Source of the DNA: an uncultured Actinomycetes bacterium
GTDB lineage: Bacteria; Actinomycetota; Thermoleophilia; Gaiellales; F1-60-MAGs149
Length of the DNA: 64,000 nucleotides
Assembly: GCA_963722525.1 (NCBI GenBank)
Contig: CAVRMM010000002.1
Coordinates: forward strand, 452,078-516,077
Reading direction: 5' to 3'
Positions 6,294 through 43,739 of this stretch are shown here, piece after piece (within the stretch, counting starts at the first letter, position 1; each line of letters opens with the position of its first letter). The position numbers and the translations under genes are program-made. Under the pieces are notes generated by a model. The model was not told the DNA's origin and searched no databases. It worked only from the letters and a program-made list of their open reading frames with translations.

Positions 6294-6302
6294 GATCTCG
6301 GC

Positions 6303-6569: not shown

Positions 6570-6610
6570 CCCGTCACACTCCCGCGCGCTCTCGTACGCC
6601 TTCGATGCGC

Positions 6611-6670
6611 GGGGTCTGACCCCGAAAACGGCTCCGCTGGGGTCTGACCCCAGAACGTTTCCGCGCGGAA
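6611..6670. repeat. Two copies of the 13-nt palindrome GGGGTCTGACCCC, followed by a 12-nt palindrome TTCCGCGCGGAA, in a convergent intergenic region
   Basis: Read directly: copies at 6611-6623 and 6639-6651, each followed by (G)AAAACG or AGAACG, then TTCCGCGCGGAA at 6659-6670. The region lies between the 3' ends of the remA-like (+) and phosphatase-family (-) genes. Confidence 0.6.
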
Positions 6671-6748
6671 CGCGGACGAGTCGTGCGACATGGGTGAGTA
6701 CGCGCGCAAGTGGACGACGACCGCGCGCGCACCGGCACGTGGGACGCG

Positions 6749-7960: not shown

Positions 7961-7977
7961 CGCGGCACTATACGGGC

Positions 7978-12899: not shown

Positions 12900-13091
12900 A
12901 ACAGCATGGCGCCATCAACGGAATACTTCCGTCGATGGCAGCCAGTCGAGTTTTAAGCCGAGCGCCGGCCTTTTAGGTCGGCGACTCACAAGCGGCCGTG
13001 TCGACTGCCGGGCCTTCGGGCACCGGATGGAGACATCGGCTGGATCAACTCCATAGCCTGTAATCGCCACTTCGGCGAATACAACAAGGTT

Positions 13092-14642
<1,551 letters not shown>

Positions 14643-14918
14643 TAGGGATGCGGTGACATCGGTCACGCAGGCGCCCCCCACCGGATGTGGAGCTCTCGTT
14701 CTCGGGGTGACTTACCTGGACGCGTGTATCGCGTCGGAGAGCTCGCACGATGGGGCACGTTAGAACGATCGTCGACCACGGCTTGGCCGGCCAGCGCTGA
14801 GAACTCGTAGGTCATTCATGTTGCTCAGTTTTCAGAGACAGGCGCTTCGGCGCCCCTGACCGTCGTCCTCTCGAGGGCGGGTCGTCGCGTCTCTCAGCGG
14901 GCATGGCGTCCGCGCGCA

Positions 14919-14930
14919 CCTTGAAAACTG
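14919..14930 (+). promoter_or_regulatory. boxA-like spacer element CCTTGAAAACTG upstream of the 23S
   Basis: Second copy of the leader motif (see 12888-12899). Confidence 0.35.
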
Positions 14931-14956
14931 CATAGTGGTATGTGGTGTTCTCTTAC

Positions 14957-17957
<3,001 letters not shown>

Positions 17958-18033
17958 AATATGGTGAGCCCATCATGCCCTATGCAGCTTTGAAGGTGCG
18001 CGGAGCCGCGCCCTGATCTGACATCTCAGAGCT

Positions 18034-18150
18034 TTCCGGTGGCTATGGCGAGGGGGATACACCTCTTCCCTTTCCGAACAGAGCAGTTAAGCCCCTCAGC
18101 GCCGATGGTACTTGGTTCGCAAGAGCCTGGGAGAGTAGGTCGCCGCCGGA
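18034..18150 (+). rRNA. rrf: 5S ribosomal RNA
   Basis: About 117 nt with CCGAACAGAGCAGTTAAGC and CCTGGGAGAGTAGGTCGCCGCCGGA, the typical 5S helix I/IV-V signatures. Confidence 0.85.
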
Positions 18151-18160
18151 TTCAACGTCA

Positions 18161-25062: not shown

Positions 25063-25134
25063 TCCTCGGTAGCTCAACGGCAGAGCATCCGACTGTTAAT
25101 CGGAGGGTTGTAAGTTCGAATCTTACCCGAGGAG
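25063..25134 (+). tRNA. tRNA-Asn (anticodon GTT)
   Basis: A cloverleaf was folded by hand: acceptor TCCTCGG/CCGAGGA, D stem GCTC/GAGC, anticodon stem TCCGA/TCGGA with loop CTGTTAA, T arm GTAAG-TTCGAAT-CTTAC, discriminator G. CCA is not encoded. Confidence 0.88.
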
Positions 25135-27590: not shown

Positions 27591-28160
27591 ATGCGCGGTC
27601 GAGTTCTGACGGCGATCCTGGCGATCTCACTGGTCGCGACTGCCTGCGGCGGGACGGACGAGCCCGCCGCGCCGGCCGGAGCGACGTCCGAGGTCGCGCC
27701 GGCAGCGACGGCGCCCGTCCCGACGACGCCGGTGCCGACCGCGACCGCCGCCGCCCAGCCCGCGGCGGAGACCACGCCGGCCGAGCCGGCCCCGCCGAAG
27801 CATCCGACGCTCAAGGTGGTCTCATCCGACTTCGGCAAGACGATCGCCGACGACGACGGTGAGGCGCTGTACCTGTTCGACGCCGATACGACGAAGAAGA
27901 GCACGTGCTACGACGCGTGTGCCGTCGCGTGGCCGCCGCTGCTCACCAAGAAGGCGCCGACGGTGTCGGCCGCGCTCGACCCCGGGCTGGTCGGCACGAC
28001 CAGGCGCACGGACGGCACGCGCCAGGTCACCTACAACGGGCACCCGCTCTACTACTACGTCGGCGACTCGCCCGGCGTGATCAAGTGCCAGGACGTCTTC
28101 GAGTACGGCGGCCGGTGGCTGATCGTCAAGCCGAACGGCAAGGCGAACCTGGCGGGCTAG
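27591..28160 (+). CDS. Lipoprotein of the COG4315 type (Yx(FWY)xxD-motif family)
   Basis: ORF 27591..28160 has the lipobox LVATAC, a Pro/Thr/Ala-rich linker, then GEALYLFDADT...CYDACAVAWPPL...QVTYNGHPLYYYVGD. Confidence 0.7.
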   Translation: MRGRVLTAILAISLVATACGGTDEPAAPAGATSEVAPAATAPVPTTPVPTATAAAQPAAETTPAEPAPPKHPTLKVVSSDFGKTIADDDGEALYLFDADTTKKSTCYDACAVAWPPLLTKKAPTVSAALDPGLVGTTRRTDGTRQVTYNGHPLYYYVGDSPGVIKCQDVFEYGGRWLIVKPNGKANLAG

Positions 28161-29524
28161 CCGAGCTCGAAGAAGCGCTCCAGCTCGCGATCCGTCACCA
28201 GCGCCCGGAACTCGCGCTCCTGCCACTCGCGGGTGTCCGCGAAGTGGTCGACGAACGTGTCGCCGAACAGCTCGCGTGCCACCGACGACGCGCGGAAGCG
28301 GTCGATGCCGTCGCGGAACGCGCCGGGGAAGGCGAGGTGCTCGGGCACCTCGACGGCGTACGCGTCGCGCTGCAGGGCCGGCTCGGGCTCGATGCGGTGC
28401 TCGACGCCGTACAGGGCCGCGCCGACCAGTGCGGCGGTGACGAGGTACGGGTTGGCGTCGGCACCGGGTGTCCGGCACTCGACGCGCGTCCCCGCCGGCG
28501 TGCCGGGGATGACGCGCAGGGCGCAGGAGCGGTTCTCGACGCCCCAGAACGCCGCGATCGGCGCGAAGATGCCCGGCACCAGGCGCTTGAACGAGTTGAC
28601 GTTCGGCGCCAGCATCAGCAGCAGCTCCGGCATCAGCCGCTGCATGCCGCCGAGCATGTGGTGCATCGTGGTCGACAGGCCGCTCGGACCGTCGGCGTCG
28701 TGCAGCAGCGGCGTGCCCTCGAGGTCGCGCAGCGAGAGGTGCAGGTGGCCGCTCTGGCCGTCGACCTCGTTCGACCAGCGGGCCATGAAGCTCAGCAGCA
28801 GGTCGCGACGGTGGGCGACGGCCTTGGCGTAGCTCTTGAACACGGCCGCGTCGTCGGCCACGCGCAGCGGCGAGCCGTAGGCGATGGTCGCCTCCATGAA
28901 CCCGGGGCCCATCTCCTCGTGCATGCTGTCGAGCGAGACGCCGAGCGACCGGCAGGCGTCCATGATCGCGCCGTAGAACTCCGCCCACGCCGACTGCCGC
29001 TGCAGCGCGTAGTACGTGGAGTGGGGGGTCGCGACCTGCAGGTCGCGGTGGCCCTTCGCCACCACCGTGTCGGACGTCTCGCGGAACAGCGTGAACTCGT
29101 ACTCGAGGCCCGTGACCGGTGCGATGCCCTGGTGCTTCGCGCGCGCCAGCACGCGGTGCAGCACGCTGCGGGTGCAGACCGCTGCGGTCTCGTCGGCGTA
29201 CTCCAGCTGGAAGAAGAGGTTGCGGCCGACCGGCTCCCACGGGATCACGCGGCACGACTCCGGGATCACGCGCACGAGGGCGTCGAAGTAGCCGGTGTCC
29301 GGCCCGCCGACGGTGGCGTTCGCGGCCATGACGTCGTGGTAGTCGAGCCCCAGCGTGACGGCCGGGACGCCCATGCCGTCGCGCAGCGCGCTCTCGAACT
29401 TGCGCCGCGACACGTACTTGCCGCGCAGCATGCCCTGGGTGTCCACGATGCCCACCGTGACGAACTCCGCGTCCGTCTCCTGCAGGACGCGCTGGGCGCC
29501 CTCGACATTCGTCACATCGAACAT
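28157..29524 (-). CDS. Glutamine synthetase family protein (gamma-glutamyl-amine-ligase-like)
   Basis: ORF 28157..29524 has GLEYEFTLF, HEEMGPGFMEAT, SGHLHLSL, NSFKRLVPG and NRSCALRV, the conserved GS catalytic blocks. Confidence 0.85.
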   Translation of the reverse strand: MFDVTNVEGAQRVLQETDAEFVTVGIVDTQGMLRGKYVSRRKFESALRDGMGVPAVTLGLDYHDVMAANATVGGPDTGYFDALVRVIPESCRVIPWEPVGRNLFFQLEYADETAAVCTRSVLHRVLARAKHQGIAPVTGLEYEFTLFRETSDTVVAKGHRDLQVATPHSTYYALQRQSAWAEFYGAIMDACRSLGVSLDSMHEEMGPGFMEATIAYGSPLRVADDAAVFKSYAKAVAHRRDLLLSFMARWSNEVDGQSGHLHLSLRDLEGTPLLHDADGPSGLSTTMHHMLGGMQRLMPELLLMLAPNVNSFKRLVPGIFAPIAAFWGVENRSCALRVIPGTPAGTRVECRTPGADANPYLVTAALVGAALYGVEHRIEPEPALQRDAYAVEVPEHLAFPGAFRDGIDRFRASSVARELFGDTFVDHFADTREWQEREFRALVTDRELERFFELG

Positions 29525-30774: not shown

Positions 30775-31566
30775 ATGGCCGCTACCGAACAGGCACTGAG
30801 GGTCAACCGCCAGCACATGCCCTTCGAGCTCGACGGCGGTGTCGCGCCGCGGGCTGCGATCGGCCTGATCGTGCTCGCGACCGACAACACGATCGAGCAC
30901 GAGTTCCGGCAGATCGTCCCGCGGGTCGCGGGCGCCGCGGTGTTCCACACCCGGATCCTGAACGACCCCGACATCAATCCCGTGACGCTCCGGGCGATGG
31001 AGGCGCGCCTCGCCGACTGCAGCCGCACGCTGCGGCCGGGCGAGCGCATCGACGTGGTCGCCTACGGCTGCACGTCGGCGTCGATGGTGATCGGCCCGGC
31101 CGGCGTCGCCGCCCGCGTGCACGAGGGCCGGCCCGACGTGCCGGTGACGAACCCGGTCAGCGCCGCCGTGACGGGCCTCGGGGCGATGGGGGCGAAGCGC
31201 ATCGCGCTGCTGACGCCGTACATCGACGAGGTCAACCAGGGCATGCGCAACTTCTTCGTCGGCCAGGGCCTCGAGGTGCCGGTGATGGGCTCGTTCAACC
31301 ATGCGGACGACAACGAGGTGGCGCGGATCTCCGAGGCGTCGATCGAGGACGCGCTGGTCGAACTGGGGTCGAACGACGACGTCGACGGCGTGTTCATCTC
31401 GTGCACCAGCCTGCGCGTCTGCGGCATCGTGGAGCGCGCCGAGGAGCGCCTCGGCAAGCCCATCACCTCGTCCAACCACGCCCTTGCATGGCACGCGCTG
31501 CGGCTCGCCGGCGTCGACGAGCAGCTGGACGGGCTCGGGCGCCTCTTCCGCACGCCGCTGCCGTGA
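30775..31566 (+). CDS. Asp/Glu/hydantoin-racemase superfamily protein (maleate cis-trans isomerase / arylmalonate decarboxylase-like)
   Basis: ORF 30775..31566 has IGLIVLATDNTIEHEF, VVAYGCTSAS (first catalytic Cys), RIALLTPY and VFISCTSLR (second Cys). Confidence 0.72.
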   Translation: MAATEQALRVNRQHMPFELDGGVAPRAAIGLIVLATDNTIEHEFRQIVPRVAGAAVFHTRILNDPDINPVTLRAMEARLADCSRTLRPGERIDVVAYGCTSASMVIGPAGVAARVHEGRPDVPVTNPVSAAVTGLGAMGAKRIALLTPYIDEVNQGMRNFFVGQGLEVPVMGSFNHADDNEVARISEASIEDALVELGSNDDVDGVFISCTSLRVCGIVERAEERLGKPITSSNHALAWHALRLAGVDEQLDGLGRLFRTPLP

Positions 31567-32067
31567 CCGGCGGCGGCGTCGAGATCGAGCGCAAGTACCT
31601 GCTGCCCGGGCCGCCGCCCGCGCGGGTGCTCGAGTCGGCGACGGCGTACGAGATCGACCAGACCTACCTCGGCGCCGGTGACGGCTCGCGACGCCTGCGC
31701 CGGCGCGTGGGGCCCGACGGCGAGCGCTTCTGGCTGACCGAGAAGCACGCGCGGGGCGGCATCACTCGCTCCGAGGACGAGCGCGAGCTCGACGCCGACG
31801 AGTACCGCGAGCTGCTCGGGGAGGCCGATCCGCAGTCGGGCACGGTCGTCAAGACGCGCCACGTCATCGAGCACGGCACGCAGCTGATCGAGGTCGACGT
31901 GTTCGCGGCGCCGGCCGGGCTGGTGCTGCTCGAGGTCGAGCTGGAGTCGGAGGACGAGGCGGTCGAGCTGCCCGCGTGGGCGGCGGGCGCCGTCGACGTC
32001 TCGGAGGACGGCACGTACACGAACGCCGCGATCGCGCGCGCAGCTCGGCCCCGACCGCGACCGTTAG
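31563..32067 (+). CDS. CYTH domain protein (triphosphate tunnel metalloenzyme); 3' end inferred
   Basis: The EIERKYLL start motif and LLEVELESE are in the frame of ORF 30657..32732, with a GTGA overlap with the upstream stop. As given, the frame has no stop until 32732 and runs antisense through the next gene. A +1 insertion in the GCGCGCG run at about 32036-32040 would place TAG 32065-32067 in frame (...AAIAR|AQLGPDRDR*). Confidence 0.6.
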
Positions 32068-32192
32068 GCGCGCGGTTCCGCGCGGAAGGCGCCTGGGGCG
32101 ACAGATCCGGTGCCTGGCACCGAATTTGCGCGGATGGCACGGACGCGTTCGAGGTGCGGTGCCTTCTGGGACGCTCCGCGCGCGACCCGGTA

Positions 32193-32717
32193 CTAGGTGG
32201 TCGCCGAGGCGAACCTGCCGTGGTGGAAGATCAGCGGCGCCGCGTCGGTGGACTCGGCCGCCGACACGAACCCCGTGAAGATCACGTGGTCGCCGCCCGG
32301 CAGCAGCGAGTGCAGCGTGCAGTCGAGATAGCCGACCGCGCCGGCGATGCGCGGGTGGCCCAGCGGACCCGGCTCCCAGTCGATCTCGGCGAACTTGTCG
32401 CCGTCCTTGCGGGCCAGGGCGCGGCAGACACCCTCCTGGTCGGCGGCCAGGAAGTTGATCGTGAACGCGCCGGCGGCGACCAGGATCGGCCGTGTGCGCG
32501 AGGTGCGCGCGGCGCACACGAGCACCAGCGGCGGCTCCAGCGACAACGACGAGAAGGCGTTGGCCGCGAACCCGTACGGCTGCTCGTCGTGGACGACGGT
32601 GATCGCGGCGACGCCGGTGGGGAAGACGCCGGCGACCGTCCGGAGCACGTCGGGGGCAACTGCGGTGACGGGTTCGAGTGGCTCCCCGTCGGGCCAGTGC
32701 TGTTCATCGCCTCGCAT
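32193..32717 (-). CDS. Flavin reductase (HpaC/NtaB-like, two-component monooxygenase partner)
   Basis: ORF 32193..32771 from MRGDEQHW has FPTGVAAITV, GFAANAFSSLSLEPPLVLVC and INFLAADQ. It is divergent from the GntR/LLM operon. Confidence 0.8.
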   Translation of the reverse strand: MRGDEQHWPDGEPLEPVTAVAPDVLRTVAGVFPTGVAAITVVHDEQPYGFAANAFSSLSLEPPLVLVCAARTSRTRPILVAAGAFTINFLAADQEGVCRALARKDGDKFAEIDWEPGPLGHPRIAGAVGYLDCTLHSLLPGGDHVIFTGFVSAAESTDAAPLIFHHGRFASATT

Positions 32718-32720
32718 GGT

Positions 32721-32751
32721 CTTGCATGGTAGCCTGCTTCTACCATGCAAG
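32721..32751. promoter_or_regulatory. Perfect 12-bp inverted repeat CTTGCATGGTAG-N7-CTACCATGCAAG; candidate GntR operator
   Basis: Read directly. It fills the 27-bp gap between the two divergent start codons (CAT 32715-32717 and ATG 32745-32747). The right arm contains the GntR ATG. An extra GCATGGT half-site lies at 32714-32720. The core TGGTAG...CTACCA resembles the GT-N-AC type sites used by GntR/FadR regulators. Confidence 0.5.
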
Positions 32752-33320
32752 CCAGGGAAGCCAGCCTCCAATCGCGTGTCGCCGCACAGATCCGCGAGGG
32801 AATCGTGACCGGTGACTACGCCGCGGGCACCGGGCTCTCAGAGGTCACCCTCTCCGGTGAGCTGGGCGTCTCCCGCACGCCGGTGCGCGAGGCGCTGAAG
32901 CAGCTGGCGACCGAGGGGCTGGTCGAGATCGTGCCGCGGGTCGGGACCTTCGTGGCCACGCCGACGCGCCGCGACATCAACGAGCTGTACGGCCTGAAGG
33001 AGATCTTCGAGGGCTGCGCGGCCGGACTGCTCGCGCCCCGCGGCGACGACGAGGCGATCGCGCTGCTGGCCGAGTGCGTCGACGACGGCCCGCGGTTTGC
33101 GGAGCGGCTCGTCGAGGCGGCCGACTCGGCGAAACTGGCGCTGACGTATCGCTGGCACATGAACCTGCTCGCCTCGCACGAGCCCCCCGACCGAGGTGCC
33201 CAGGCGGTCGCGGAGCTCGAGGTGGTGCTGGAGCGGCTCCGCGCGAGGGATGCGCACGGCGCCGAGCACGCGATGCGAGACCATGTCCGGGCCGACCTGA
33301 GAGCACTGATGCAACGATGA
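32745..33320 (+). CDS. GntR family (FadR/FCD-type) transcriptional regulator
   Basis: ORF 32745..33320 has the winged HTH LSEVTLSGELGVSRTPVREALKQLATEGLVEIVPRVGTFV plus a helical C-terminal domain. Its stop overlaps the next ATG (ATGA). Confidence 0.85.
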   Translation: MQAREASLQSRVAAQIREGIVTGDYAAGTGLSEVTLSGELGVSRTPVREALKQLATEGLVEIVPRVGTFVATPTRRDINELYGLKEIFEGCAAGLLAPRGDDEAIALLAECVDDGPRFAERLVEAADSAKLALTYRWHMNLLASHEPPDRGAQAVAELEVVLERLRARDAHGAEHAMRDHVRADLRALMQR

Positions 33321-34435
33321 AGTTCTCCGTCTTCCACAACCTGGGTGCGCCCGGCCGGCTGGACGAGTACGCGGCCGTGATGGGCGAGGCGCGGGAGTAC
33401 GCGCTGGCCGCCGAGGCCGCCGGGTTCTGGTCGATCTGGTACACCGAGCACCACTTCGGGCACGAGGCCGTCGAGATCACGCCCAACCCCGTGATCATGA
33501 GCACCGACATCGCGGCGCGGACGTCGCGGATCCGCATCGGGCAGGCCGCGAACATCATCACGTTCTGGCACCCGCTGCGCCTCGCGGAGGACCTCGCGAT
33601 GCTCGACCAGCTGTCGGGCGGCCGCCTCGAGATCGGCATCGGCCGCGGCCTCTACGGCCGCGAGGCGCTGAACCTGAACCCGATCGCCGACCCCCGCAAC
33701 GAGCACCAGAACCGCGAACTGTTCGCCGAGACACTCGAGGTGATGCAGAAGGCGTGGAGCGAGGAGTTCTTCTCGCACCACGGCCGGTTCTACGAGTTCC
33801 CGCAGCCCGGCGTGCGCTGGAACCACCCGCTCAGCCCGCCCGACGAGCGGTTCGCCGACGAGCGCGGGATGATCACGAAGATGAGCGTCACGCCGCGGCC
33901 GCTGCAGCGCCCGCACCCGCCGATCTGGCAGGTCATCGACACGCAGCCGTCGATCGAGTGGGCGGCGGCGCGCGGCATCAAGGGCATGTTCTGGCTGCCG
34001 CCCGTCTCGGCCCTGAAGCGGCGCTTCGCGCTGTACCGCGAACGGGCCGCGGCGGCCGGCATCACGCTCGCCCAGGGCGAGAACCTGTCGCTGGTGCGCG
34101 ACGTCTACGTGGCACCGACGATGGAGCAGGCGCGCCGCGAGTTCGAGGCGGCGGTGATGACGTCGTACCAGTGGATCCTGCACTGGCGCGGCCTGCGCAA
34201 CCTGCTCGAGGACGGCGAGGAGCTCGGCTCGCACGCGCTCGACTACGACTTCCTGCACGCCCGCAACCAGCTGGTCGGCACGCCGGAGTTCGTGCGCGAG
34301 CGCATCGCCGAGCTGCGCGACGAGCTCGGCCTCGAGCACCTGCTGATCTGGACGACGCACCCCGGCCTGCCGCATCGCCAGGCGATGCGCAGCCTCGAGC
34401 TGTTCGCCGGCGACGTGATGCCGGAGTTCTCGTGA
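33317..34435 (+). CDS. LLM-class (luciferase-like) flavin-dependent monooxygenase
   Basis: This is the tail of ORF 33074..34435, starting MKFSVFH. It has FWSIWYTEHHF, IRIGQAANI, LDQLSGGRLEIGIGRG and GTPEFVRERI. Confidence 0.85.
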   Translation: MKFSVFHNLGAPGRLDEYAAVMGEAREYALAAEAAGFWSIWYTEHHFGHEAVEITPNPVIMSTDIAARTSRIRIGQAANIITFWHPLRLAEDLAMLDQLSGGRLEIGIGRGLYGREALNLNPIADPRNEHQNRELFAETLEVMQKAWSEEFFSHHGRFYEFPQPGVRWNHPLSPPDERFADERGMITKMSVTPRPLQRPHPPIWQVIDTQPSIEWAAARGIKGMFWLPPVSALKRRFALYRERAAAAGITLAQGENLSLVRDVYVAPTMEQARREFEAAVMTSYQWILHWRGLRNLLEDGEELGSHALDYDFLHARNQLVGTPEFVRERIAELRDELGLEHLLIWTTHPGLPHRQAMRSLELFAGDVMPEFS

Positions 34436-35016
34436 TCCGCAAGCTCGTGTCGGTGGTCGAGGAGATCTCGGCCGAGCCGGGCTCAGGGCCCAACGAGCCC
34501 GTGCGTCGCGCCGCCGCGGCCGCCGTGATCGACAACCCGTGGACGGGCCGCGGCCGCGTTGACGACCTGGGCGCCGAGGTCGAGCGGATCGCACCCGTCG
34601 TCGCCGTCGCCCTGACCGACCGCCTCGCCGAGGTGCTGGGCGGAGCGGAGGAGATCGAGGCGTTCGGCAAGGCCGCCATCGTCGGCACCGACGGCGAGAT
34701 CGAGCACGGCGCGGCGCTCATCCACACGCCCTGGTTCGGCGACGTCGTGCGGCAGGCGCTCGACGGCACGTCGATCATCGTCTTCTCCGACACGCGCGGC
34801 CCGGCCGGCACCGCGCTGGTCGTGCCCGTCTGGCACAAGACCGCCGCCGCCACCCGATCGCACTACCAGACCGTCGAGATCCGGATCGCCGACGCGCCCC
34901 GGCCCGGCGAGATCGTGCTCGTCTGCGCCGCCGCCACCGGCGGGCGCCCGCAGGCCCGCATCGGCGATCGCACCACCGACACCGCGAACGTCCGCCTGGA
35001 GGACCACCGGCCGTGA
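34432..35016 (+). CDS. 'Amino acid synthesis' family protein (PF06684/DUF1185-like), copy 1
   Basis: This is the tail of ORF 33754..35016: IRKLVSVVEEI...AAAAAVIDNPWTGRG...FGKAAIVGTDGEIEHGAALIHT...RSHYQTVEI. It has GTGA overlaps on both sides. Confidence 0.72.
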   Translation: MIRKLVSVVEEISAEPGSGPNEPVRRAAAAAVIDNPWTGRGRVDDLGAEVERIAPVVAVALTDRLAEVLGGAEEIEAFGKAAIVGTDGEIEHGAALIHTPWFGDVVRQALDGTSIIVFSDTRGPAGTALVVPVWHKTAAATRSHYQTVEIRIADAPRPGEIVLVCAAATGGRPQARIGDRTTDTANVRLEDHRP

Positions 35017-35564
35017 AGCTCCGCAAGCTCGTCACCATCATCGAGGAGACCACCTCCGAGGGCGGCCGCCCGGTCGAGCCCGTGCACCGGGTCGCGATCG
35101 TGCTCGCCGTGATCGAGAACCCGTGGGCGGGACAGGGCTTCGTCGCCGACCTCGCGCCGCTGATCGACGAGGTGGCGCCGCAGCTCGGCGAGCTGCTCTC
35201 GGCGCGCTGCGTCGAGGCGCTCGGCGTGCCGGCCGAGGCGTACGGCAAGGCCGGGCTCGTCGGGCTGGACGGCGAGGTCGAGCACGCGTCGGGCCTCATC
35301 CACACCCTCAAGTTCGGCAACTTCTTCCGCACCGCCGCCAACGCCACGACGCTGCTGCCGGCCGTCGAGAAGGTCGCGCCCGCCGGCGCCAGCTTCGACA
35401 TCCCGCTGAAGCACATCACCGACGCCACGATCCGGTCGCACCACCAGTCGGTCACCGCCTTCGTCCCCGACGCGCCGCGCGCGAACGAGCTGCTGATCGG
35501 CCTCGCCGCCGCCAGCCGCGGCCGACCGCAGGAGCGGCTCGCGCCCCTGTCGACCGAGCTGTGA
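35013..35564 (+). CDS. 'Amino acid synthesis' family protein (PF06684/DUF1185-like), copy 2
   Basis: ORF 35013..35564 has LRKLVTIIEET...VAIVLAVIENPWAGQG...YGKAGLVGLDGEVEHASGLIHT...RSHHQSVTA. It is clearly paralogous to copy 1. Confidence 0.72.
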   Translation: MKLRKLVTIIEETTSEGGRPVEPVHRVAIVLAVIENPWAGQGFVADLAPLIDEVAPQLGELLSARCVEALGVPAEAYGKAGLVGLDGEVEHASGLIHTLKFGNFFRTAANATTLLPAVEKVAPAGASFDIPLKHITDATIRSHHQSVTAFVPDAPRANELLIGLAAASRGRPQERLAPLSTEL

Positions 35565-36238
35565 TCGACGGGCCGGTCCTGCTGCTGCACGGCGTCGGTC
35601 TCGACCGCACGGTCTGGGATCCGGTCGTCGCGCTGCTGGGCGGCGCCGACGTGCATGCGCCGAACCTGCGCGGCCACGGCGGCGACGTGCTGGACGGGCC
35701 CGTCACCCTGCGCGACCTGGTGCCCGACGTGTCCGAGCCGGCCCACGTGGTCGGGTTTTCGCTGGGCGGCCTGGTCGCCACCCGGCTGGCGGCCGACCGG
35801 CCCGAGCTGGTGCGGTCGCTGACGCTCGTCGCCACCGTCGCGGAGCGCACACCCGAGGAGCGCGCGGCGGTGGGGAAGCGGCTCGCCGCCGCCGAGGCCG
35901 ACCTGCACGGGTCGTTCGACGGCGCCCTGGCGCGCTGGGGCTCCGACGTGGTCGCGCCGGTGCTGCACGCGAACGACCGTGAGAGCTACCTCGCCTGCTA
36001 CCGCGTATTCGCGACGGCCGACGCGGAATGCGCGCCGCTGTACGCCGGGCTCGAGATGCCGGTGCTCGCGATCACCGGCGCCGACGACGCCGGCTCCACG
36101 CCCGCCATGTCCGCCACCATCGCCGCGGCGTGCCCGCGCGGCGAGGTCGTGATCGTCCCTGGCGCCCGCCACCTGCTGCCGCTCGACGCGCCGCAGGCCG
36201 TGGCCGACGCCATCATCCGCAACGCCGGGAGGTCCTGA
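35561..36238 (+). CDS. Alpha/beta hydrolase
   Basis: This is the tail of ORF 35123..36238. It has VLLLHGVGLD, the nucleophile elbow VVGFSLGG and a C-terminal GARHLLPLDAP (His). Confidence 0.8.
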   Translation: MIDGPVLLLHGVGLDRTVWDPVVALLGGADVHAPNLRGHGGDVLDGPVTLRDLVPDVSEPAHVVGFSLGGLVATRLAADRPELVRSLTLVATVAERTPEERAAVGKRLAAAEADLHGSFDGALARWGSDVVAPVLHANDRESYLACYRVFATADAECAPLYAGLEMPVLAITGADDAGSTPAMSATIAAACPRGEVVIVPGARHLLPLDAPQAVADAIIRNAGRS

Positions 36239-37737
36239 TGGCAACCGTCGCGCTCAAGCAGTACCAGCACTACATCGGCGGCGCGTGGGTGGATGCCGCC
36301 GACGGCGCCACCTTCGAATCGTTCAACCCGGCCACCGGCGAGCCCTGGTACACGGCCGCCCGCGGCAGCGCGGAGGACATGCATCGCGCGGTGGCGGCCG
36401 CCAAGAAGGCGTTCGACGCGCCGTCGTGGAAGGGCCTCACGCAGACGCAGCGTGGCCACCTGCTGCGCAAGCTGGGCGACCTGATCGCCGAGAACGCCGA
36501 GCGCCTCGCGGTCGCGGAGTCGACCGACAACGGCAAGCTGATCCGCGAGATGCGCGTGCAGCTCGCCGTGCTGCCGGAGTACTACTACTACTTCGGCGGG
36601 CTGGCCGACAAGATCCACGGCGACGTCATCCCGGCCCTGCGCAAGGAGATCCTCAACTACACGCTGCGCGAGCCGATCGGCGTGGTCGGGGCGATCACGC
36701 CCTGGAACTCGCCGCTGCTGCTGACCTCGATGAAGCTCGCGCCGGCGCTGGCGGCGGGCTGCGCGATCGTCATCAAGCCGTCCGAGCACACCTCGGCGTC
36801 GCTGCTGGAGATGATGCCGCTGATCGAGCAGGCGGGGTTCCCGCCGGGCGTGGTCAACGTCGTCACCGGCTTCGGTGCCGACGCCGGGGCGGCGCTGGTG
36901 GGCCACTCCGACGTCGCCAAGATCGCGTTCACGGGCTCCAGCCAGACGGGCGCGCGGATCGCCGCCCAGGCCGGCGGCCGCCTGGCGCGCGTCACCCTCG
37001 AGCTGGGCGGCAAGTCGCCGCAGCTGGTGTTCGACGACGCCGACCCGCAGAGCGCCGCGATGGGCATCGTGGCGGGCGTGTTCGCGGCGGCCGGGCAGAC
37101 GTGCGTCGCCGGCTCGCGTGTGTTCCTGCAGGAGGGCATCTACGACGAGGTGCTCGAGCTGGTGCTGGAGCGCACGCGGCGCATCAAGATCGGCGACCCG
37201 CTCGATGCCGAGACCGAGCTCGGCCCGCTGGCGCTCAAGGACCAGCTCGAGAAGGTGCAGGGCTACGTCGCGATCGGCCGCGACACCGACGGCGCCACGC
37301 TGCTGCACGGCGGCCGCCAGCCCGACATCGCGGCGACGTCGGGCGGCTGGTTCCACGAGCCGACCATCTTCACCGACGCCCGCAACGACATGCGGGTCTG
37401 CCAGGAGGAGATCTTCGGCCCGGTCGCGATGATGATGCGGTTCCGCGACGAGGCCGAGGCGGTCGAGCTGGCGAACTCCAGCCAGTTCGGGCTCGCCGCC
37501 GGCGTGTGGACGCGCGACCTGGCCCGCGCGCACCGGATGGCGTCGGCGCTCGACGCGGGCACGATCTGGATCAACACCTACCGGGCGATGTCGCCGATGT
37601 CGCCGCTGGGCGGGTTCAAGCAGTCGGGCATGGGCAAGGAGAACAGCCCCGAGGTGATGCGGGAGTACACGCGGCTGAAGTCGGTGTGGGTCAACACCAG
37701 CGACGAGCCGACCGCCGATCCGTTCGTCCTGCGCTGA
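36238..37737 (+). CDS. NAD(P)-dependent aldehyde dehydrogenase
   Basis: This is the tail of ORF 36028..37737. It has GAITPWNSPL, FTGSSQTG, the catalytic LELGGKSP and GQTCVAGSR, and EEIFGPV. Confidence 0.9.
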   Translation: MATVALKQYQHYIGGAWVDAADGATFESFNPATGEPWYTAARGSAEDMHRAVAAAKKAFDAPSWKGLTQTQRGHLLRKLGDLIAENAERLAVAESTDNGKLIREMRVQLAVLPEYYYYFGGLADKIHGDVIPALRKEILNYTLREPIGVVGAITPWNSPLLLTSMKLAPALAAGCAIVIKPSEHTSASLLEMMPLIEQAGFPPGVVNVVTGFGADAGAALVGHSDVAKIAFTGSSQTGARIAAQAGGRLARVTLELGGKSPQLVFDDADPQSAAMGIVAGVFAAAGQTCVAGSRVFLQEGIYDEVLELVLERTRRIKIGDPLDAETELGPLALKDQLEKVQGYVAIGRDTDGATLLHGGRQPDIAATSGGWFHEPTIFTDARNDMRVCQEEIFGPVAMMMRFRDEAEAVELANSSQFGLAAGVWTRDLARAHRMASALDAGTIWINTYRAMSPMSPLGGFKQSGMGKENSPEVMREYTRLKSVWVNTSDEPTADPFVLR

Positions 37738-37763
37738 CCGCAGGTGTAGTACCGTCGGCTCCC

Positions 37764-38561
37764 ATGTCCGACGACCTCGCGCTCGTCGCCGACGCCGACG
37801 GCGTCCGCACGATCACCATGAATCGCCCCGAGCGCCGCAACGCGCTCAACCTCGCGCTGCTCGAGGCGCTGCGGGCGGCGTTCGCCGCCGCCGCCGCCGA
37901 CGAGGCGATCCGCTCCGTCGTGCTGGCGGGCGCGGGGAAGGGGTTCTGCGCGGGCGCCGACGTGAGCGACTGGGCCTCGTACGGCGATGCCGACGGGGCG
38001 GCCGCCGACGCCGGCGCGGCGTGGGAGCGCAACGCGCACGCGCTGGTGCAGGAGGTGCACGACCTGCCGAAGCCGACCGTCGCGGTGCTGCACGGCGCCG
38101 CGGTCGGCGCCGGGCTCGACCTCGCGTGCGCCTGCGACTTCCGCGTGGCGGCCGAGGACGCCGTCTTCTTCTGCGCCTACACCTGGGTCGGCTACAACCC
38201 CGACGTCGGCGGCTCGTGGCTGTACCCGCGCCTGATGGGCCTGGAGGCGGCGAAGCGGTTCGTGTACACGGGCGAGCGGTGGGACGCCGCCACGGCGAAG
38301 GGCCACGGCCTGGTCTCCGAGGTCGTCTCGCGCGACGAGCTGGCCGCCGCGGGCGCGAGCCTGGCGGCCGAGCTGGCGAGCGGGCCGAGCGTCGCGATCG
38401 GGCTCGCGAAGGGCCTGCTGCAGACCGCGTCCACGCGCACGCTCGGCGAGCAGCTGGAGGCCGAGAAGGCGGCGGGCCAGATCTGCGCCGAGACCGAGGA
38501 CCACCGCGAGGCGCTGGCGGCGTTCACCGAGAAGCGCTCGCCCGTGTTCCGCGGCCGGTGA
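37764..38561 (+). CDS. Enoyl-CoA hydratase/isomerase (crotonase) family protein
   Basis: This is the tail of ORF 36285..38561. It has ITMNRPERRNAL, GKGFCAGADV, HGAAVGAGLDLACACD and EDHREALAAFTEKR. Confidence 0.88.
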   Translation: MSDDLALVADADGVRTITMNRPERRNALNLALLEALRAAFAAAAADEAIRSVVLAGAGKGFCAGADVSDWASYGDADGAAADAGAAWERNAHALVQEVHDLPKPTVAVLHGAAVGAGLDLACACDFRVAAEDAVFFCAYTWVGYNPDVGGSWLYPRLMGLEAAKRFVYTGERWDAATAKGHGLVSEVVSRDELAAAGASLAAELASGPSVAIGLAKGLLQTASTRTLGEQLEAEKAAGQICAETEDHREALAAFTEKRSPVFRGR

Positions 38562-40555
38562 ACGCCCGGCGCCTGCTGCGACCGCGCTCGGTCGCCTTCA
38601 TCGGCGGTGGCCTCTCGCCCGTGGCGATGCAGATCTGCGTCGACGGCGGCTTCGACGGCCCCGTGTACGCGGTGCACCCGCGCAACGAGGGCGCCTACCG
38701 GTCGATCGCCGACCTGCCCACGGTGCCGGACGCGGCCTTCATCGGCGTCAACGCCCAGGCTACCGTCGAGGTGGTCGGCCAGCTGGCCGCGATCGGCACG
38801 GGCGGCGCCGTCTGCTACGCCGCCGGGTTCGCCGAGGCGGGCGACCCGGAGCTGGAGCGGGCGCTGGTCGAGGCGGCGGGGGAGATGGCGCTGCTGGGCC
38901 CCAACTGCTACGGCCTGGTCAACCGCGTCGACGGCGCCAGCCTGTGGCCCGTGCCGTATCCGCTGCCCCGCGTCGACCGCGGCATCGGGCTGGTGCTGCA
39001 GTCGGGCAATCTCGGCATCAACCTCTCGATGGCCGACCGGTCGCTGCCGGTCGCGTTCATCCTCACGGTCGGCAACCAGGCCGGCCTCGACGTCGCCGCC
39101 TCCGTCGACCTGCTGCTCGACCAGCCGGAGACGACCGGGATCGGCATCTACCTGGAGGGCCTGCGCGACGCCGCGCCGTTCGCCGACGCGGCCGCCCGGG
39201 CGCTGGAGCGCGGCATCCCGATCACCGTGGTCAAGTCGGGGGCGAGCGAGGTCGGCGCCCAGGTGACCGCCACCCACACCAGCTCGCTGGCCGGGTCGGA
39301 CGAGCTCTACGACGCGTTCTTCGACCGGCTCGGCGTCAGCCGCGCACCCGACATGCCGGCCCTGCTCGAGACGCTGAAGGCGCAGACGGCCATCGGCCCG
39401 TTGCGCGGCCGGCGCACGATCGTGTTCACGTGCTCCGGCGGCGAGTCGGCCCTGTCGGCCGACGCCGCCACGGCGGCCGGGCTGGAGCTGCCGCCGCTGA
39501 GCGAGGCGACCACCGCCACCATCGCGGCCGAGCTGCCGTGGTATGCCGGCGTGGGCAATCCGCTGGACTACAACACCTCGCTGTGGGGCCTCGAAGAGCC
39601 GCTCACGCGCGTGTTCTCGGCCGCGCTCACCGAGGGCGCCGACGTCGCGCTGCTGGTGATCGACCACCCGCGCGCCGACCTGGGCATCACCTCCGAGATC
39701 GACGCCGCCGTCACCGCGCTGGAGCGCGCGTGCGCGACCGCCGGCGTGGCCGCGGCCGTCGTCTCGACGATGCCCGAGTCGTTCCCCGCCGACCGCCGCG
39801 ATGCGCTCTACGCGCGCGGCGTGGCCCCGTTGCAGGGGCTGCGGGACGCGTTCGGGGCGCTCGGCGCCTGCGCGGCGTGGGGCGCCCGCCTCGCCGATCC
39901 GACGCCCGTGTCGGTGGACGCGCAGGCCGAGGAGCCCGACGCGCCGCTGCTCGACGAGCACGACTCGAAGCGGCGCGTCGCCGCCGCGGGCGTCGCGGTG
40001 CCCGACGGGCGCCTCGTCGAGCCGGCGGCGGCAGGTGCGGCGGCGGCCCAGATCGGGTTCCCGGTGGCGGTCAAGCTGTGCTCGGCCGACTTGCCGCACA
40101 AGGCCGACGCCGGCGCGCTGGCGCTGGGGCTGACCTCGGCGGCCGCGGTCGACGAGGCCGTCGCGAGAATGCTGGAGCGCAATGCCGGCGTGCCGCTCTC
40201 CGGCGTGCTGGTCGAGTGCATGGTCGGCGGTGCCGTGGCCGAGTTGCTGGTCGGCATCAAGCGCGACCCGGTGTTCGGGCCGGTGGTGGTGGTGGGCGCC
40301 GGCGGCGGCCTGGTCGAGCTGATCGGCGATGCGCGGCCGCTGCTCGCACCCGTCACGCGCCCGGCGGTGGAGGCGGCGCTGCGCAGCCTGCGGATCTGGC
40401 CCCGGATCGCGCGTGGCGACATCGCCGCGGCGGTCGACGCGGTGCTCGCAATCGCAGGCCTGGCGCCGGATGTCGTCGAGCTCGACGTGAATCCGCTGCT
40501 GGTGCTCGACGTGGGTTGCGTCGCAGCGGACGCGTTAATCCGCACGTCGCGCTAA
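38558..40555 (+). CDS. ADP-forming (NDP-forming) acyl-CoA synthetase family protein (CoA-binding + succinyl-CoA-synthetase-like + ATP-grasp domains)
   Basis: This is the tail of ORF 38021..40555. It has SVAFIGG, LLGPNCYG, SGNLG, the phosphohistidine loop ATHTSSLAGSD and a C-terminal ATP-grasp (FPVAVKL...HKADAGA). It has a GTGA overlap with the crotonase stop. Confidence 0.8.
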   Translation: MNARRLLRPRSVAFIGGGLSPVAMQICVDGGFDGPVYAVHPRNEGAYRSIADLPTVPDAAFIGVNAQATVEVVGQLAAIGTGGAVCYAAGFAEAGDPELERALVEAAGEMALLGPNCYGLVNRVDGASLWPVPYPLPRVDRGIGLVLQSGNLGINLSMADRSLPVAFILTVGNQAGLDVAASVDLLLDQPETTGIGIYLEGLRDAAPFADAAARALERGIPITVVKSGASEVGAQVTATHTSSLAGSDELYDAFFDRLGVSRAPDMPALLETLKAQTAIGPLRGRRTIVFTCSGGESALSADAATAAGLELPPLSEATTATIAAELPWYAGVGNPLDYNTSLWGLEEPLTRVFSAALTEGADVALLVIDHPRADLGITSEIDAAVTALERACATAGVAAAVVSTMPESFPADRRDALYARGVAPLQGLRDAFGALGACAAWGARLADPTPVSVDAQAEEPDAPLLDEHDSKRRVAAAGVAVPDGRLVEPAAAGAAAAQIGFPVAVKLCSADLPHKADAGALALGLTSAAAVDEAVARMLERNAGVPLSGVLVECMVGGAVAELLVGIKRDPVFGPVVVVGAGGGLVELIGDARPLLAPVTRPAVEAALRSLRIWPRIARGDIAAAVDAVLAIAGLAPDVVELDVNPLLVLDVGCVAADALIRTSR

Positions 40556-40643
40556 AGCCCCCTGCCCCAGTGCCGATGACCTAGCCCGAGGGCCTGGAAC
40601 CGGTGTGGGAACCGGCTCCGATGCCCGGAGCAAGGGGAGCACC

Positions 40644-41168
40644 GTGGTTCGTCTCGTCACGATCGCAGTCGCGCTGGCAGCAGTTGCCATTCCCGCGCGC
40701 GCTCTGGCGGCTGCACCGGTCACGTCGGGTTCGATCCGGGTGAACGCGTCGGTGGCGACGGTGCAGATCGGGCTCACCCGCTCCACCGTGGTGCGGCGCG
40801 TCGGCCAGCCGCTGGAGCGGCACTCCCGCGACGACTGGGGCTGGGACGGGCCGATGACGACCTTCGGCGTGACCTTCGACCAGCACCGCGTGGTGCGCGT
40901 CTCGATCGGCGGCTCGGGGCTCTTCTGCATCAAGGCCGGCGTGTGCACGGGCAGCCGCGGCGGCATCGGCTATCTGAAGCGGCGCTATGGCTCGAAGCTG
41001 CACTTCTTCCGCGTCGAGGATGGCACGCGCGCCGCGATGGTCGTCGGCAAGCGCGGCAAGCGCCGGGTGTTCACGATCTTCGGCGACGTCACGTCGGCGA
41101 AGCCCGCGGGTCGGTTCCGCAGCGTCCTGATGGGCGATTGCGACCGCGGCGCCAGCCGCCCCTGCTGA
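40644..41168 (+). CDS. Secreted hypothetical protein
   Basis: GGGGAG lies 5 nt before GTG 40644. The signal-like N-terminus is VVRLVTIAVALAAVAIPARALA. No family was recognised. Confidence 0.5.
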   Translation: MVRLVTIAVALAAVAIPARALAAAPVTSGSIRVNASVATVQIGLTRSTVVRRVGQPLERHSRDDWGWDGPMTTFGVTFDQHRVVRVSIGGSGLFCIKAGVCTGSRGGIGYLKRRYGSKLHFFRVEDGTRAAMVVGKRGKRRVFTIFGDVTSAKPAGRFRSVLMGDCDRGASRPC

Positions 41169-41274
41169 CCGTTCGCCCGGCGGTGCCAGGCACCGATGAC
41201 GCCGGCACACATCCGTGCGCGGTTTGGCCGGATCCGGCACGGACCGCGCGGCGCGCTGCGCTACGCTCGCCGCG

Positions 41275-43152
41275 ATGAGCCGAGTCGAGGAGCTGCACCG
41301 CGCGAGCCTGGCCGACCCCGCGGCCTTCTGGGGTGAGGCGGCGCGCGCCATCGACTGGACGGTGGCGCCGACGACCGTCCTCGACGATCGCAACGCGCCG
41401 TTCGTCCACTGGTTCCCGGACGGCGAGCTGAACACCGCCTGGAACTGCATCGACCGGCACGTCGCGGGCGGCCGCGCCGACCAGCTCGCGCTCGTCTCCG
41501 ACTCGCCGGTGACCGGCACCGTCCGTCGCTTCACGTACCGCGGAGCTGCAGGACGAGGTCGCGCGCCTCGCCGGCGCGTTGGCCGGGCTCGGCGTCGGGC
41601 GCGGCGACCGGGTCGTGCTGTACATGCCGATGGTGCCCGAGGCGGTGTTCGGCGATGCTCGCCTGCGCGCGGCTCGGCGCCGTCCACTCGGTGGTGTTCG
41701 GCGGCTTCGCGCCGCGCGAGCTCGCGATCCGCATCGACGACGCGCCGGCCGACCGTGATCCTGTCGGCGTCGTGCGGCATCGAGGGCGCCCGCGTGATCC
41801 CGTACAAGCCGCTCCTCGACGAGGCGATCGGCCTCGCCCGCCACAAGCCAGGTGCGTGCCTGATCCTGCAGCGGCCGCAGGCCGAGGCGTCGCTGGTCGA
41901 GGGCCGCGACCACGACTGGGCCGGCGCGGTCGCCGCGGCGGCACCGGCGGACTGCGTGCCGGTGCGCGCCACCGACCCGCTCTACATCCTCTACACGTCG
42001 GGCACCACCGGGTTGCCGAAGGGCGTCGTGCGCGACAACGGCGGGCACGCCGTGGCGCTCGCGTGGTCGATGCCGAACGTCTATGGCGTCAAGCCGGGTG
42101 ACGTCTACTGGGCGGCGTCCGACGTCGGCTGGGTCGTTGGCCACTCCTACATCGTCTACGCGCCCCTGCTGCACGGCTGCACGACGATCCTGTACGAGGG
42201 CAAGCCGGTCGGGACGCCCGATGCGGGCGCCTTCTGGCGCGTCATCGCCGAGCACGGCGTGCGGACGCTGTTCACCGCGCCGACCGCGTTCCGCGCGATC
42301 AAGAAGGAGGATCCCGACGGCAAGCTGCTCGCGCAGCACGACCTGGGCGGGTTCGAGGCGCTGTTCCTCGCCGGCGAGCGCACCGACACGGACACCTACC
42401 ACTGGGCGCGCGACCTGCTCGGCGTGCCGGTGATCGACCACTGGTGGCAGACGGAGTCCGGGTGGCCGATCGCGGCGAACTGCATCGGCATCGAGCCCCT
42501 GCCCGTGAAGCCCGGCTCGCCGACGAAGCCCGTGCCGGGCTACGACGTGCGGATCCTGCGCGAGACCGGGGAGGAGGCCGACCGCGGCGAGACCGGTGCG
42601 ATCGCGATTCGCCTGCCGCTGCCGCCAGGCGCGCTGCCGACGCTGTGGAACGACGACGAGCGCTTCGTCTCCTCCTACATGGAGCAGTTCCCCGGCCACT
42701 ACGTGACGGGCGACGGCGGCTACATGGACGAGGATGGCTACCTGTTCGTCATGGGCCGCATCGACGACGTCATCAACGTCGCGGGCCACCGCCTGTCGAC
42801 CGGCTCGATGGAGGAGGTGCTCGCGACGCACGCCGACGTCGCGGAGTGCGCGGTGATCGGCGTGCCGGACGAACTGCGCGGCGAGGTGCCGTTCGGCTTC
42901 GTGGTGCTGAAGGCGGGCGTCGACCGGCCCGGTGCCGAGATCGTCCGCGAGCTCGTCCAGCTCGTGCGCGAGCAGGTGGGTGCGGTCGCGGTGTTCCGCG
43001 ATGCGCGGATCGTCGCCCGTCTGCCGAAGACCCGCTCGGGCAAGATCCTGCGCGGCACGATGCGCTCGATCGCGGCCGGCACCGCGTACACCGTGCCCTC
43101 CACGATCGACGATCCGGCCATCCTGGAGGAGATCGCGACCGCCCTGTCTTGA
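41275..43152 (+). pseudogene. AMP-forming acetyl/propionyl-CoA synthetase family ligase; frame broken three times (likely artefact)
   Basis: The N-terminus FWGEAARAIDW...WFPDGELNTAWNCIDRH, YTSGTTGLPKG, WWQTESG, YVTGDGGYMDEDGY and KTRSGKILR are in ORF 41215..43152. The internal segment [11 protein letters not shown]...[11 protein letters not shown]|[19 protein letters not shown]...IDDA|RPTVILSAS runs through the two other frames. Extra bases lie near 41541, 41651 and 41744. Confidence 0.88.
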
Positions 43153-43667: not shown

Positions 43668-43739
43668 GGGCCTGTAGCTCAGCGGTAGAGCAGCGGACTC
43701 ATAATCCGTTGTGCCCTGGTTCGAATCCAGGCGGGCCCA
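43668..43739 (+). tRNA. tRNA with anticodon CAT; elongator Met by anticodon, but with tRNA-Ile2 (lysidine)-like features
   Basis: Hand-folded cloverleaf: acceptor GGGCCTG/CGGGCCC, anticodon arm GCGGA-CTCATAA-TCCGT, T arm CCTGG-TTCGAAT-CCAGG. It is not an initiator (no GGG:CCC in the anticodon stem). C4-G69/C5-G68 and the G27:U43 wobble also occur in E. coli ileX as I recall it. Confidence 0.85.

Follow-up and report, generated by a model that had tools for sequence, protein, structure and literature searches.

A Tgn-like gene cluster with a divergent luciferase-like monooxygenase and two DUF1185 proteins in an uncultured Gaiellales bacterium

Trigonelline, homarine and other pyridine betaines are abundant metabolites of plants and phytoplankton. 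For Acinetobacter baylyi ADP1, Perchat and co-workers reportedly described in 2018 a pathway encoded by tgnABCDEF (together with tgnR and tgnP), in which the two-component oxygenase TgnAB is said to cleave the ring directly to an N-methylformamido lactol, TgnC to oxidise this lactol, the hydrolase TgnD to yield formate, methylamine, CO2 and succinate semialdehyde, and TgnE, aided by TgnF, to oxidise the semialdehyde. In Arthrobacter sp. 68b (pyrABCDE) a two-component flavin monooxygenase cleaves the pyridine ring directly, and a dehydrogenase, an amidohydrolase and a semialdehyde dehydrogenase follow; we know of no DUF1185 protein in this pathway. In the Rut system an alpha/beta hydrolase and a small trimeric protein of the chorismate-mutase fold handle reactive intermediates. 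Here we analyzed a stretch of 64,000 nucleotides from an uncultured Gaiellales bacterium (contig CAVRMM010000002.1, positions 452,078 to 516,077, approximately 72% GC), called the window throughout, with a focus on a gene cluster at 32193-40555 that encodes a GntR regulator, a luciferase-like monooxygenase (LLM) and two proteins of the family PF06684 (DUF1185). We conclude that this cluster does not encode an entirely unknown pathway but belongs with the Tgn-type systems for heterocycle ring cleavage, of which it is a divergent and widespread variant. The tgnABCDEF pathway for trigonelline (N-methylnicotinate) is cited in PMC7913881, a passage of which reports that TgnF, a DUF1185 protein, stimulates the TgnE-dependent oxidation of succinate semialdehyde in A. 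baylyi. The oxygenase TgnB (Q6F9F6) is placed among luciferase-like enzymes in a passage of PMC11354265. According to passages of Ferrer-Gonzalez et al. (2026; PMC13236597), the homarine operon homABCDER combines a TgnAB-like ring opening with a subsequent "peptidase" and an aldehyde dehydrogenase (ALDH)-like enzyme, contains a regulator, a betaine transporter and an auxiliary gene upstream or downstream, is reported mainly from Alpha- and Gammaproteobacteria and is present in SAR11; the pathway intermediates given there include C7H9NO5. HomA-E correspond to SPO3188-3192 in R. pomeroyi and to ACFLL8_11490-11520 in Cobetia.

The features of the cluster are, in coordinates of the window:

32193-32717, minus strand: flavin reductase of the NAD(P)H:flavin type, proposed reductase component of the monooxygenase (Pfam Flavin_Reduct, PF01613, 1e-38)
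32721-32751, between the two divergent starts: inverted repeat with perfect 12-nt arms, CTTGCATGGTAG-N7-CTACCATGCAAG
32745-33320, plus strand: GntR/FCD-family transcriptional regulator (Pfam GntR 2e-20, FCD 9e-8)
33317-34435, plus strand: LLM, a class C flavin-dependent monooxygenase, proposed ring-opening oxygenase (Pfam Bac_luciferase 1e-51)
34432-35016, plus strand: PF06684/DUF1185 paralogue a, TgnF-like, the actinobacterial duplicate (Pfam AA_synth 2e-60)
35013-35564, plus strand: PF06684/DUF1185 paralogue b, TgnF-like (Pfam AA_synth 5e-56)
35561-36238, plus strand: alpha/beta-fold hydrolase, TgnD-like, proposed deformylase or enamide hydrolase (Pfam Abhydrolase_6/_1)
36238-37737, plus strand: NAD(P)-dependent ALDH, TgnC-like (Pfam Aldedh 4e-169)
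37764-38561, plus strand: crotonase-superfamily enoyl-CoA hydratase/isomerase (Pfam ECH_1 2e-54)
38558-40555, plus strand: fused ADP(NDP)-forming acyl-CoA synthetase (Pfam CoA_binding_2, Succ_CoA_lig and ATP-grasp_5)

Translated at these coordinates, all nine genes are intact, with no internal stops and a third-position GC of 0.88-0.99. Pfam agreed with the gene calls and family assignments of the initial annotation for all nine, and the reductase partner predicted there was found on the opposite strand. The tight coupling of the genes was confirmed by direct reading of the seven junctions: ATGA at 33317, GTGA at 34432, 35013, 35561 and 38558, TGATG at 36236, and a 26-nt gap at 37738-37763. 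Two starts had to be corrected. The ATG that opens the ALDH frame is at 36238 instead of 36236, and for the reductase (174 aa) the ATG at 32717 was taken as the most likely start; the TTG at 32771 is disfavoured because it would overlap with the GntR start. None of the nine proteins reached an NCBIfam equivalog cut-off.

With the reductase starting at 32717, its start codon lies 27 nt from that of the divergent GntR gene. The inverted repeat found there is the only one of its kind in the window (0 expected in shuffles), and its arms recur unchanged, with a variable spacer, in three related loci (L001, L002 and L060 of the set described below). We regard it as the candidate GntR operator. A scan of the window for promoter-like sites placed none, and a consensus terminator scan returned about as many matches as in shuffled sequences, i.e. 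chance level; both scans are uninformative at 72% GC.

For the comparison with the trigonelline pathway the Tgn system was represented by tgn-type loci on plasmids of Rhizobium leguminosarum (L081) and Leisingera (L089). The Rhizobium locus reads GntR, "amino acid synthesis family" protein (DUF1185), alpha/beta hydrolase, flavin reductase, LLM, ALDH and, further on, succinate-semialdehyde dehydrogenase (SSADH); the Leisingera locus has the same order. Since JGI gives the name [quoted passage not shown] to proteins that are 78-82% identical to the LLM of the Rhizobium locus, this locus type was taken as the TgnB orthologue group. Six families are shared between the window cluster and the tgn-type locus, namely GntR, PF01613 reductase, LLM, ALDH, alpha/beta hydrolase and DUF1185. 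As in Tgn, the oxygenase is of the two-component type, with a Bac_luciferase protein (33317-34435) and a divergently encoded PF01613 reductase (32193-32717), the latter having HsaB/FerA-type families as its best NCBIfam matches, below cut-off. Identities to the Rhizobium proteins were 38% for the flavin reductase, 31% for GntR, 29% for the LLM, 43-45% for the two DUF1185 proteins (45% for paralogue a) and 34% for the hydrolase. The ALDH was 47% identical to the enzyme in the TgnC position and 38% to the SSADH. About 20 of its 120 best homologues (65-92% identity), themselves at 65-88%, carry the TgnC name [quoted passage not shown], given by JGI and in one case by NCBI. On both counts the enzyme belongs to the TgnC type, the names being automated and not derived from assays. 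Betaine-type transporters, which accompany loci related to the window cluster, are a further likeness.

There were also differences from the tgn-type locus. The window LLM is 25-30 residues longer than the TgnB type, the order is regulator-LLM-DUF1185-DUF1185-hydrolase-ALDH with a divergent short reductase instead of regulator-DUF1185-hydrolase-reductase (311 aa)-LLM-ALDH, two DUF1185 genes are present instead of one, the SSADH (TgnE) is missing, and a crotonase/synthetase module is added. The initial annotation had recognised no named pathway in the cluster. This does not hold, given the shared set of six families, a Rhizobium homologue for every core protein and the TgnC-named ALDH homologues. 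A match to a characterised pathway, which that annotation had named as something that would refute it, thus exists in part: in composition, but not in strict orthology or gene order.

A scan of genomes (one per species) for the LLM yielded 80 loci with orthologues at 48-94% identity, in which the other window proteins were then located by tblastn. Identities of the LLM were 80-94% in Gaiellales-type and other uncultured actinobacterial metagenome-assembled genomes, 61-75% in diverse Actinomycetes, 57-62% in Bacillales (n=34) and 48-53% in SAR11/Pelagibacterales genomes (n=20). Amycolatopsis thermalba, Saccharopolyspora rosea, Priestia endophytica and Brevibacillus sp. are examples of cultured carriers of the clade. 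Across Actinomycetes, Bacillales and SAR11 the core is LLM, DUF1185, hydrolase and ALDH, with the GntR gene directly upstream of the LLM in Actinomycete and Bacillales loci. DUF1185 occurs in two copies in Actinomycetes and in a single one in Bacillales and SAR11. Rediscovery of the order LLM-DUF1185-hydrolase-ALDH in 80 independent loci means that the arrangement is not due to chance. The reductase gene of the relatives lies either upstream in divergent orientation or downstream of the ALDH; tblastn with the window protein detected none in the SAR11 loci. The reductase role is taken in Bacillales loci by a PF03358 FMN (flavin mononucleotide) reductase, whose gene adjoins one for riboflavin kinase, apparently as a local supply of FMN to the oxygenase. 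Examples of this arrangement are L029 (14084-15641), with kinase and DHBP-synthase domain in one fused protein, L026 (14620-15018) and L030 (14836-15573). Two further observations were made within the clade. A SnoaL-like small protein is encoded in about 9 actinobacterial loci (e.g. L007, 7604-8032) as well as in the more distant locus L087 (2047-2466). In L001, whose LLM is 94% identical to that of the window, the ALDH (12923-14420) aligns in three pieces in different frames, probably as a result of assembly frameshifts and not as a pseudogene.

We consider it reasonably likely that the core genes form a catabolic operon of the Tgn/Rut class under repression by GntR, and that this operon serves to open the ring of a small N-heterocyclic carboxylate. 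Most likely this would be a betaine of the pyridinium type, e.g. trigonelline or a compound close to it. This reading is based on gene content, homology, synteny and transporter association, from which we infer every chemical step, the substrate and the role of DUF1185. The divergently encoded flavin reductase would provide FMNH2, with which, together with O2, the LLM would cleave the ring without prior hydroxylation to an N-formyl enamine aldehyde or a lactol. The TgnC-like ALDH would oxidise the ring-opened product to the acid, from which the alpha/beta hydrolase would strip formyl and amine, leaving formate, the amine and an unstable 2-formyl or oxo-dicarboxylate. The two DUF1185 proteins, with their chorismate-mutase-like fold, may act on this unstable product, be it an enamine/imine or a 2-formyl acid, by tautomerising, hydrolysing or decarboxylating it. 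The carbon skeleton may be carried further by the CoA module, i.e. crotonase, ADP-forming synthetase and the PrpE-like ligase listed below, and the 12-nt palindrome would be the GntR operator. The initial annotation had placed hydrolysis before aldehyde oxidation; in Tgn the order is oxygenase, ALDH, hydrolase.

Several findings weigh against this interpretation. No transporter gene and no second ALDH were found in the window, and no further match to the Rhizobium SSADH that could represent TgnE. The TgnC names of the ALDH homologues are automated annotations. With its low identity to the TgnB type the LLM is not a TgnB orthologue, and all 120 best LLM homologues are named generically, none of them for trigonelline. 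The hydrolase, at 34% to the tgn-locus enzyme, scores similarly with PcaD-type enol-lactonases. Finally, an exhaustive LLM search over 1.84 billion representatives, in which the window clade collapses into three clusters at 48-51% identity, revealed a continuum of full-length clades at 37-44% identity which are nearer to the window LLM than TgnB is, and some of them sit in unrelated contexts, so that the oxygenase may have been recruited independently. The following contexts were found outside the window clade:

P0248: LLM-GntR-cupin-Rieske
P0244: LLM-thiamine diphosphate (ThDP) enzyme
L086 (Glaciihabitans tibetensis, 5283-10059, LLM 39% identical): isochorismatase upstream on the opposite strand, then LLM-RidA-ALDH
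L087: CoA-transferase-enoyl-CoA hydratase (ECH)-DUF1185-SnoaL-reductase-ALDH-amidohydrolase-ALDH-LLM

The DUF1185 protein of L087 is 62% identical to paralogue b of the window and its ALDH 54% identical to the window enzyme. The sister clades L082-L085 and L088 were considered as the same system and rejected, as their neighborhoods are unrelated. On PLSDB plasmids the LLM had distant relatives at no more than 34% identity, the Rhizobium LLM being one of them; none exceeded 35%, and no close plasmid-borne characterised homologue such as the pyridine enzyme PyrA was present above that level. Overall, the picture is one of a modular toolkit, whose parts (LLM and reductase, a small protein of the chorismate-mutase fold, ALDH, hydrolase) are combined with varied oxygenases.

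The hydrolase and the LLM also allow for a different chemistry, namely the degradation of a ketone or lactone, with the LLM as a type II Baeyer-Villiger enzyme similar to diketocamphane monooxygenases, the hydrolase as lactonase, the ALDH acting on the opened chain and the CoA module leading into beta-oxidation. The best PDB matches of the LLM are luciferase-type enzymes, and it aligns over its full length to 3,6-diketocamphane 1,6-monooxygenase (PDB 4uwm; 1.6e-18, 70 bits), a level typical of any class C LLM. The hydrolase shows a GFSLG nucleophile motif, Asp and His, and has 3-oxoadipate enol-lactonases of the PcaD type as best NCBIfam matches. These NCBIfam matches, however, all lie far below the family cut-offs, the DUF1185 proteins and the TgnC-named ALDH favour the Tgn scheme, the cluster occurs in SAR11, and the transporters that accompany it, of the betaine/choline/carnitine (BCCT) type and of the NCS1 family, are not systems for hydrophobic substrates. 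Taken together, a Baeyer-Villiger route appears highly improbable.

BCCT transporters adjoin 30 and NCS1 permeases 29 of the 80 loci, and SAR11 loci carry TRAP (tripartite ATP-independent periplasmic) or ABC (ATP-binding cassette) uptake systems. From BCCT we derived a quaternary or zwitterionic betaine, from TRAP a carboxylate and from NCS1 an N-heterocycle, and trigonelline, homarine and other pyridine betaines all fit. The LLM is too far from the trigonelline enzyme (29%) for the substrate to be named. Trigonelline itself is a possible substrate, held with some reserve, homarine is a rather doubtful one, and the remaining probability falls to other heterocycles. The features of the hom operon, likened here by the description of gene roles in the passages cited above, are compatible with the window LLM clade, and by our own calculation C7H9NO5 would be the formula of the Tgn diacid intermediate. 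The distribution differs, the window clade being mainly that of Actinomycetes, Bacillales and SAR11, whereas hom is reported there mainly from Alpha- and Gammaproteobacteria. Concerning the cofactor, the NCBIfam matches of the LLM include both F420- and FMN-type families, below cut-off. FMN is favoured because the clade occurs in Bacillales and SAR11, neither known to us as an F420 producer, and has neighbouring genes for flavin reductases (PF01613 or PF03358) and riboflavin kinase.

NCS1 permeases also fit a pathway similar to Rut, directed at a pyrimidine or at some other cyclic amide or amidine (uracil-type or ectoine-type), in which the LLM would correspond to RutA, the hydrolase to RutD and DUF1185 to RutC. 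The initial annotation had sensed a resemblance to Rut-type heterocycle cleavage, and this intuition was correct. In E. coli RutA-G, too, a two-component LLM and flavin reductase open an N-heterocycle directly. An isochorismatase gene, with RutB as best though weak match, was found in 13 Bacillales loci, EutA-like and EutD/DoeA-like genes flank the SAR11 clusters, and in L086 a RidA protein (RutC family) is encoded directly 3' of the LLM, with an isochorismatase nearby upstream on the opposite strand. At the level of orthology the likeness ends, as no protein qualified as an equivalog of RutA, RutB, RutC, RutD or RutF: RutA is absent among the 25 NCBIfam matches listed, and the RutD (6e-6) and RutF (4.5e-14) matches are marginal and far below cut-off. 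The genes examined at 27.6-45.9 kb include neither an isochorismatase nor a RidA gene. Moreover, Rut has no ALDH, having RutE/YdfG in its place, whereas the ALDH is part of the core here and is TgnC-named. A Rut-like pathway is thus improbable, and we return to ring cleavage of the Tgn type for the two DUF1185 proteins.

Both PF06684 proteins scored well above the Pfam gathering cut-off of 27 bits (203 and 189 bits). Because all 39 invariant columns of an alignment with proteins from Actinomycetes, Bacillales, SAR11 and the Rhizobium tgn locus are retained in both, the two paralogues are probably functional. Homologues in the PDB are 2qtp and 3byq. Paralogue b is the more conserved copy (68-75% identity across Actinomycetes, 42-49% in Bacillales and SAR11) and the best match of every SAR11 and most Bacillales single copies. 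The initial annotation had described PF06684 as a family lacking an established function, a statement overtaken by the reported stimulation of downstream semialdehyde oxidation by its member TgnF. By analogy, three contexts suggest that DUF1185 acts on reactive intermediates formed by ring opening. The step of TgnF follows that of the hydrolase. In L086 the RidA gene between LLM and ALDH occupies the position of DUF1185 in the window clade, and RidA proteins share the fold class of DUF1185. The third context is a locus on a Sulfitobacter pontiacus plasmid (L090, 1519-8585), in which a tandem DUF1185 pair is accompanied by a molybdenum hydroxylase of the xanthine dehydrogenase family, a 6-hydroxynicotinate reductase and a UPF0280 protein; this cluster is a nicotinate-type pathway and hence another pyridine-carboxylate context. 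The reaction could be enamine/imine hydrolysis, or tautomerisation or decarboxylation of a 2-formyl-dicarboxylate.

The initial annotation had combined all eight genes of the plus strand into one complete route, from monooxygenase, hydrolase and aldehyde oxidation to CoA thioesterification by the ADP-forming synthetase and hydration by the crotonase, with the substrate left unnamed. The crotonase gene was found only in L001-L003 and L060, i.e. in 4 of the 80 loci, and is missing with the synthetase from the other 76; the synthetase was detected only in L002, L003 and L060, three of these four closest relatives. In L003 (LLM 83% identical) a chemotaxis-receptor (MCP) gene separates ALDH and crotonase, and L004 (80%) lacks both crotonase and synthetase. 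Because of this restriction to the closest relatives and the interposed MCP gene, the "eight-gene operon" is a six-gene conserved module, with the divergent reductase counted, plus a lineage-specific CoA module outside the core. The Tgn precedent likewise has no need for CoA chemistry. In favour of a single pathway, the genes share one strand, and the arrangement is retained in three relatives with LLMs at 93-94% identity. The consensus scan placed no terminator in the 26-nt gap between ALDH and crotonase, a scan uninformative at this GC, and on account of gap length and scan, co-transcription of the CoA module with the core is possible. Locus L087, a related LLM/DUF1185 cluster, contains an ECH and a CoA-transferase, which makes a functional link between module and core plausible, although its ECH is 37% identical to the window crotonase, a generic level. 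We hold such a link as a tentative proposal, slightly short of even, and consider it unlikely that all eight genes form one pathway.

Crotonase and synthetase have database matches at the family level only. In the synthetase a single chain carries the CoA-binding, CoA-ligase and ATP-grasp domains, as found in the NDP-forming (ACD) superfamily, and its NCBIfam matches are ADP-forming acetate, 4-hydroxybutyrate and 3-hydroxypropionate-CoA ligases, far below cut-off. The third member of the module lies downstream:

41215-43152, plus strand: PrpE/Acs-like AMP-forming short-chain acyl-CoA ligase (Pfam ACAS_N and AMP-binding)

With NCBIfam propionate-CoA ligase it reached 619 bits (cut-off 955), and it is syntenic with crotonase and synthetase in L001-L003 and L060. 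Between synthetase and ligase, at 40605-41168 on the plus strand, a 187-aa protein with a signal-peptide-like N-terminus is encoded, which has no Pfam or NCBIfam match and is syntenic at this place in the closest relatives.

Upstream of the cluster one more gene recurs with it:

30775-31566, plus strand: EutA-like gene of the arylmalonate-decarboxylase family, Asp/Glu racemase superfamily (Pfam Amdase 95 bits)

It scored 211.7 bits with NCBIfam EutA (cut-off 318). A homologue adjoins the cluster in 18 of the 20 SAR11 loci and in Gaiellales-type loci including the window, and it is possibly an associated accessory, e.g. an isomerase or decarboxylase. SAR11 loci L062-L080 (e.g. L063, 6140-7309; L073, 5535-9831) carry, divergent from the LLM operon, an EutD/DoeA-like M24 hydrolase (472 bits, cut-off 613), the EutA-like gene and an ABC or TRAP transporter, which suggests an ectoine-like or related catabolic island. 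In some Bacillales a YCII protein gene lies near the cluster. The second ALDH of the Bacillales loci was considered as a TgnE-type SSADH and discarded, since its best match is a lactaldehyde dehydrogenase model, far below the SSADH cut-offs. In the window the EutA-like gene is followed by a CYTH-like open reading frame ("VEIERKYLL...") at 31563-32732, plus strand. The third-position GC of this frame is high, and it is open as far as 32732, which takes it through the reductase gene in antisense; it may contain a frame break. A glutamine-synthetase-family gene at 28157-29524 on the minus strand scores about equally as type I and type III glutamine synthetase and as gamma-glutamylputrescine synthetase, with none of the scores reaching its cut-off; its product could serve to assimilate an amine set free by the pathway, although the gene shows no link with the cluster. 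A complete rRNA operon (16S, 23S, 5S) at 13092-18151 explains the low-GC stretch at 12-18 kb, and tRNA genes lie at 25063-25134 and 43668-43739.

Annotation pipelines label the ALDH of this clade as TgnC and name the oxygenase in generic terms only. If the clade degrades a pyridine betaine, a carbon and nitrogen source would be named for soil Gram-positives as well as for SAR11. We further propose, as a speculative and on balance rather unlikely extension, that the clade represents a new degradation route, shared by Actinomycetes, Bacillales and SAR11 (the last dominant in the ocean), whose substrate is an abundant N-heterocyclic betaine different from trigonelline and in which a different oxygenase is coupled to the Tgn-type trio of ALDH, hydrolase and DUF1185, with DUF1185 as the enzyme acting on the unstable enamine/2-formyl-acid product. 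If true, the Tgn-type downstream enzymes would be a reusable module that pairs with different ring-opening oxygenases. For DUF1185, with structures solved since 2010 and members in several heterocycle pathways, the cluster offers a tractable way to function, and under the new route the family would gain its first biochemical function.

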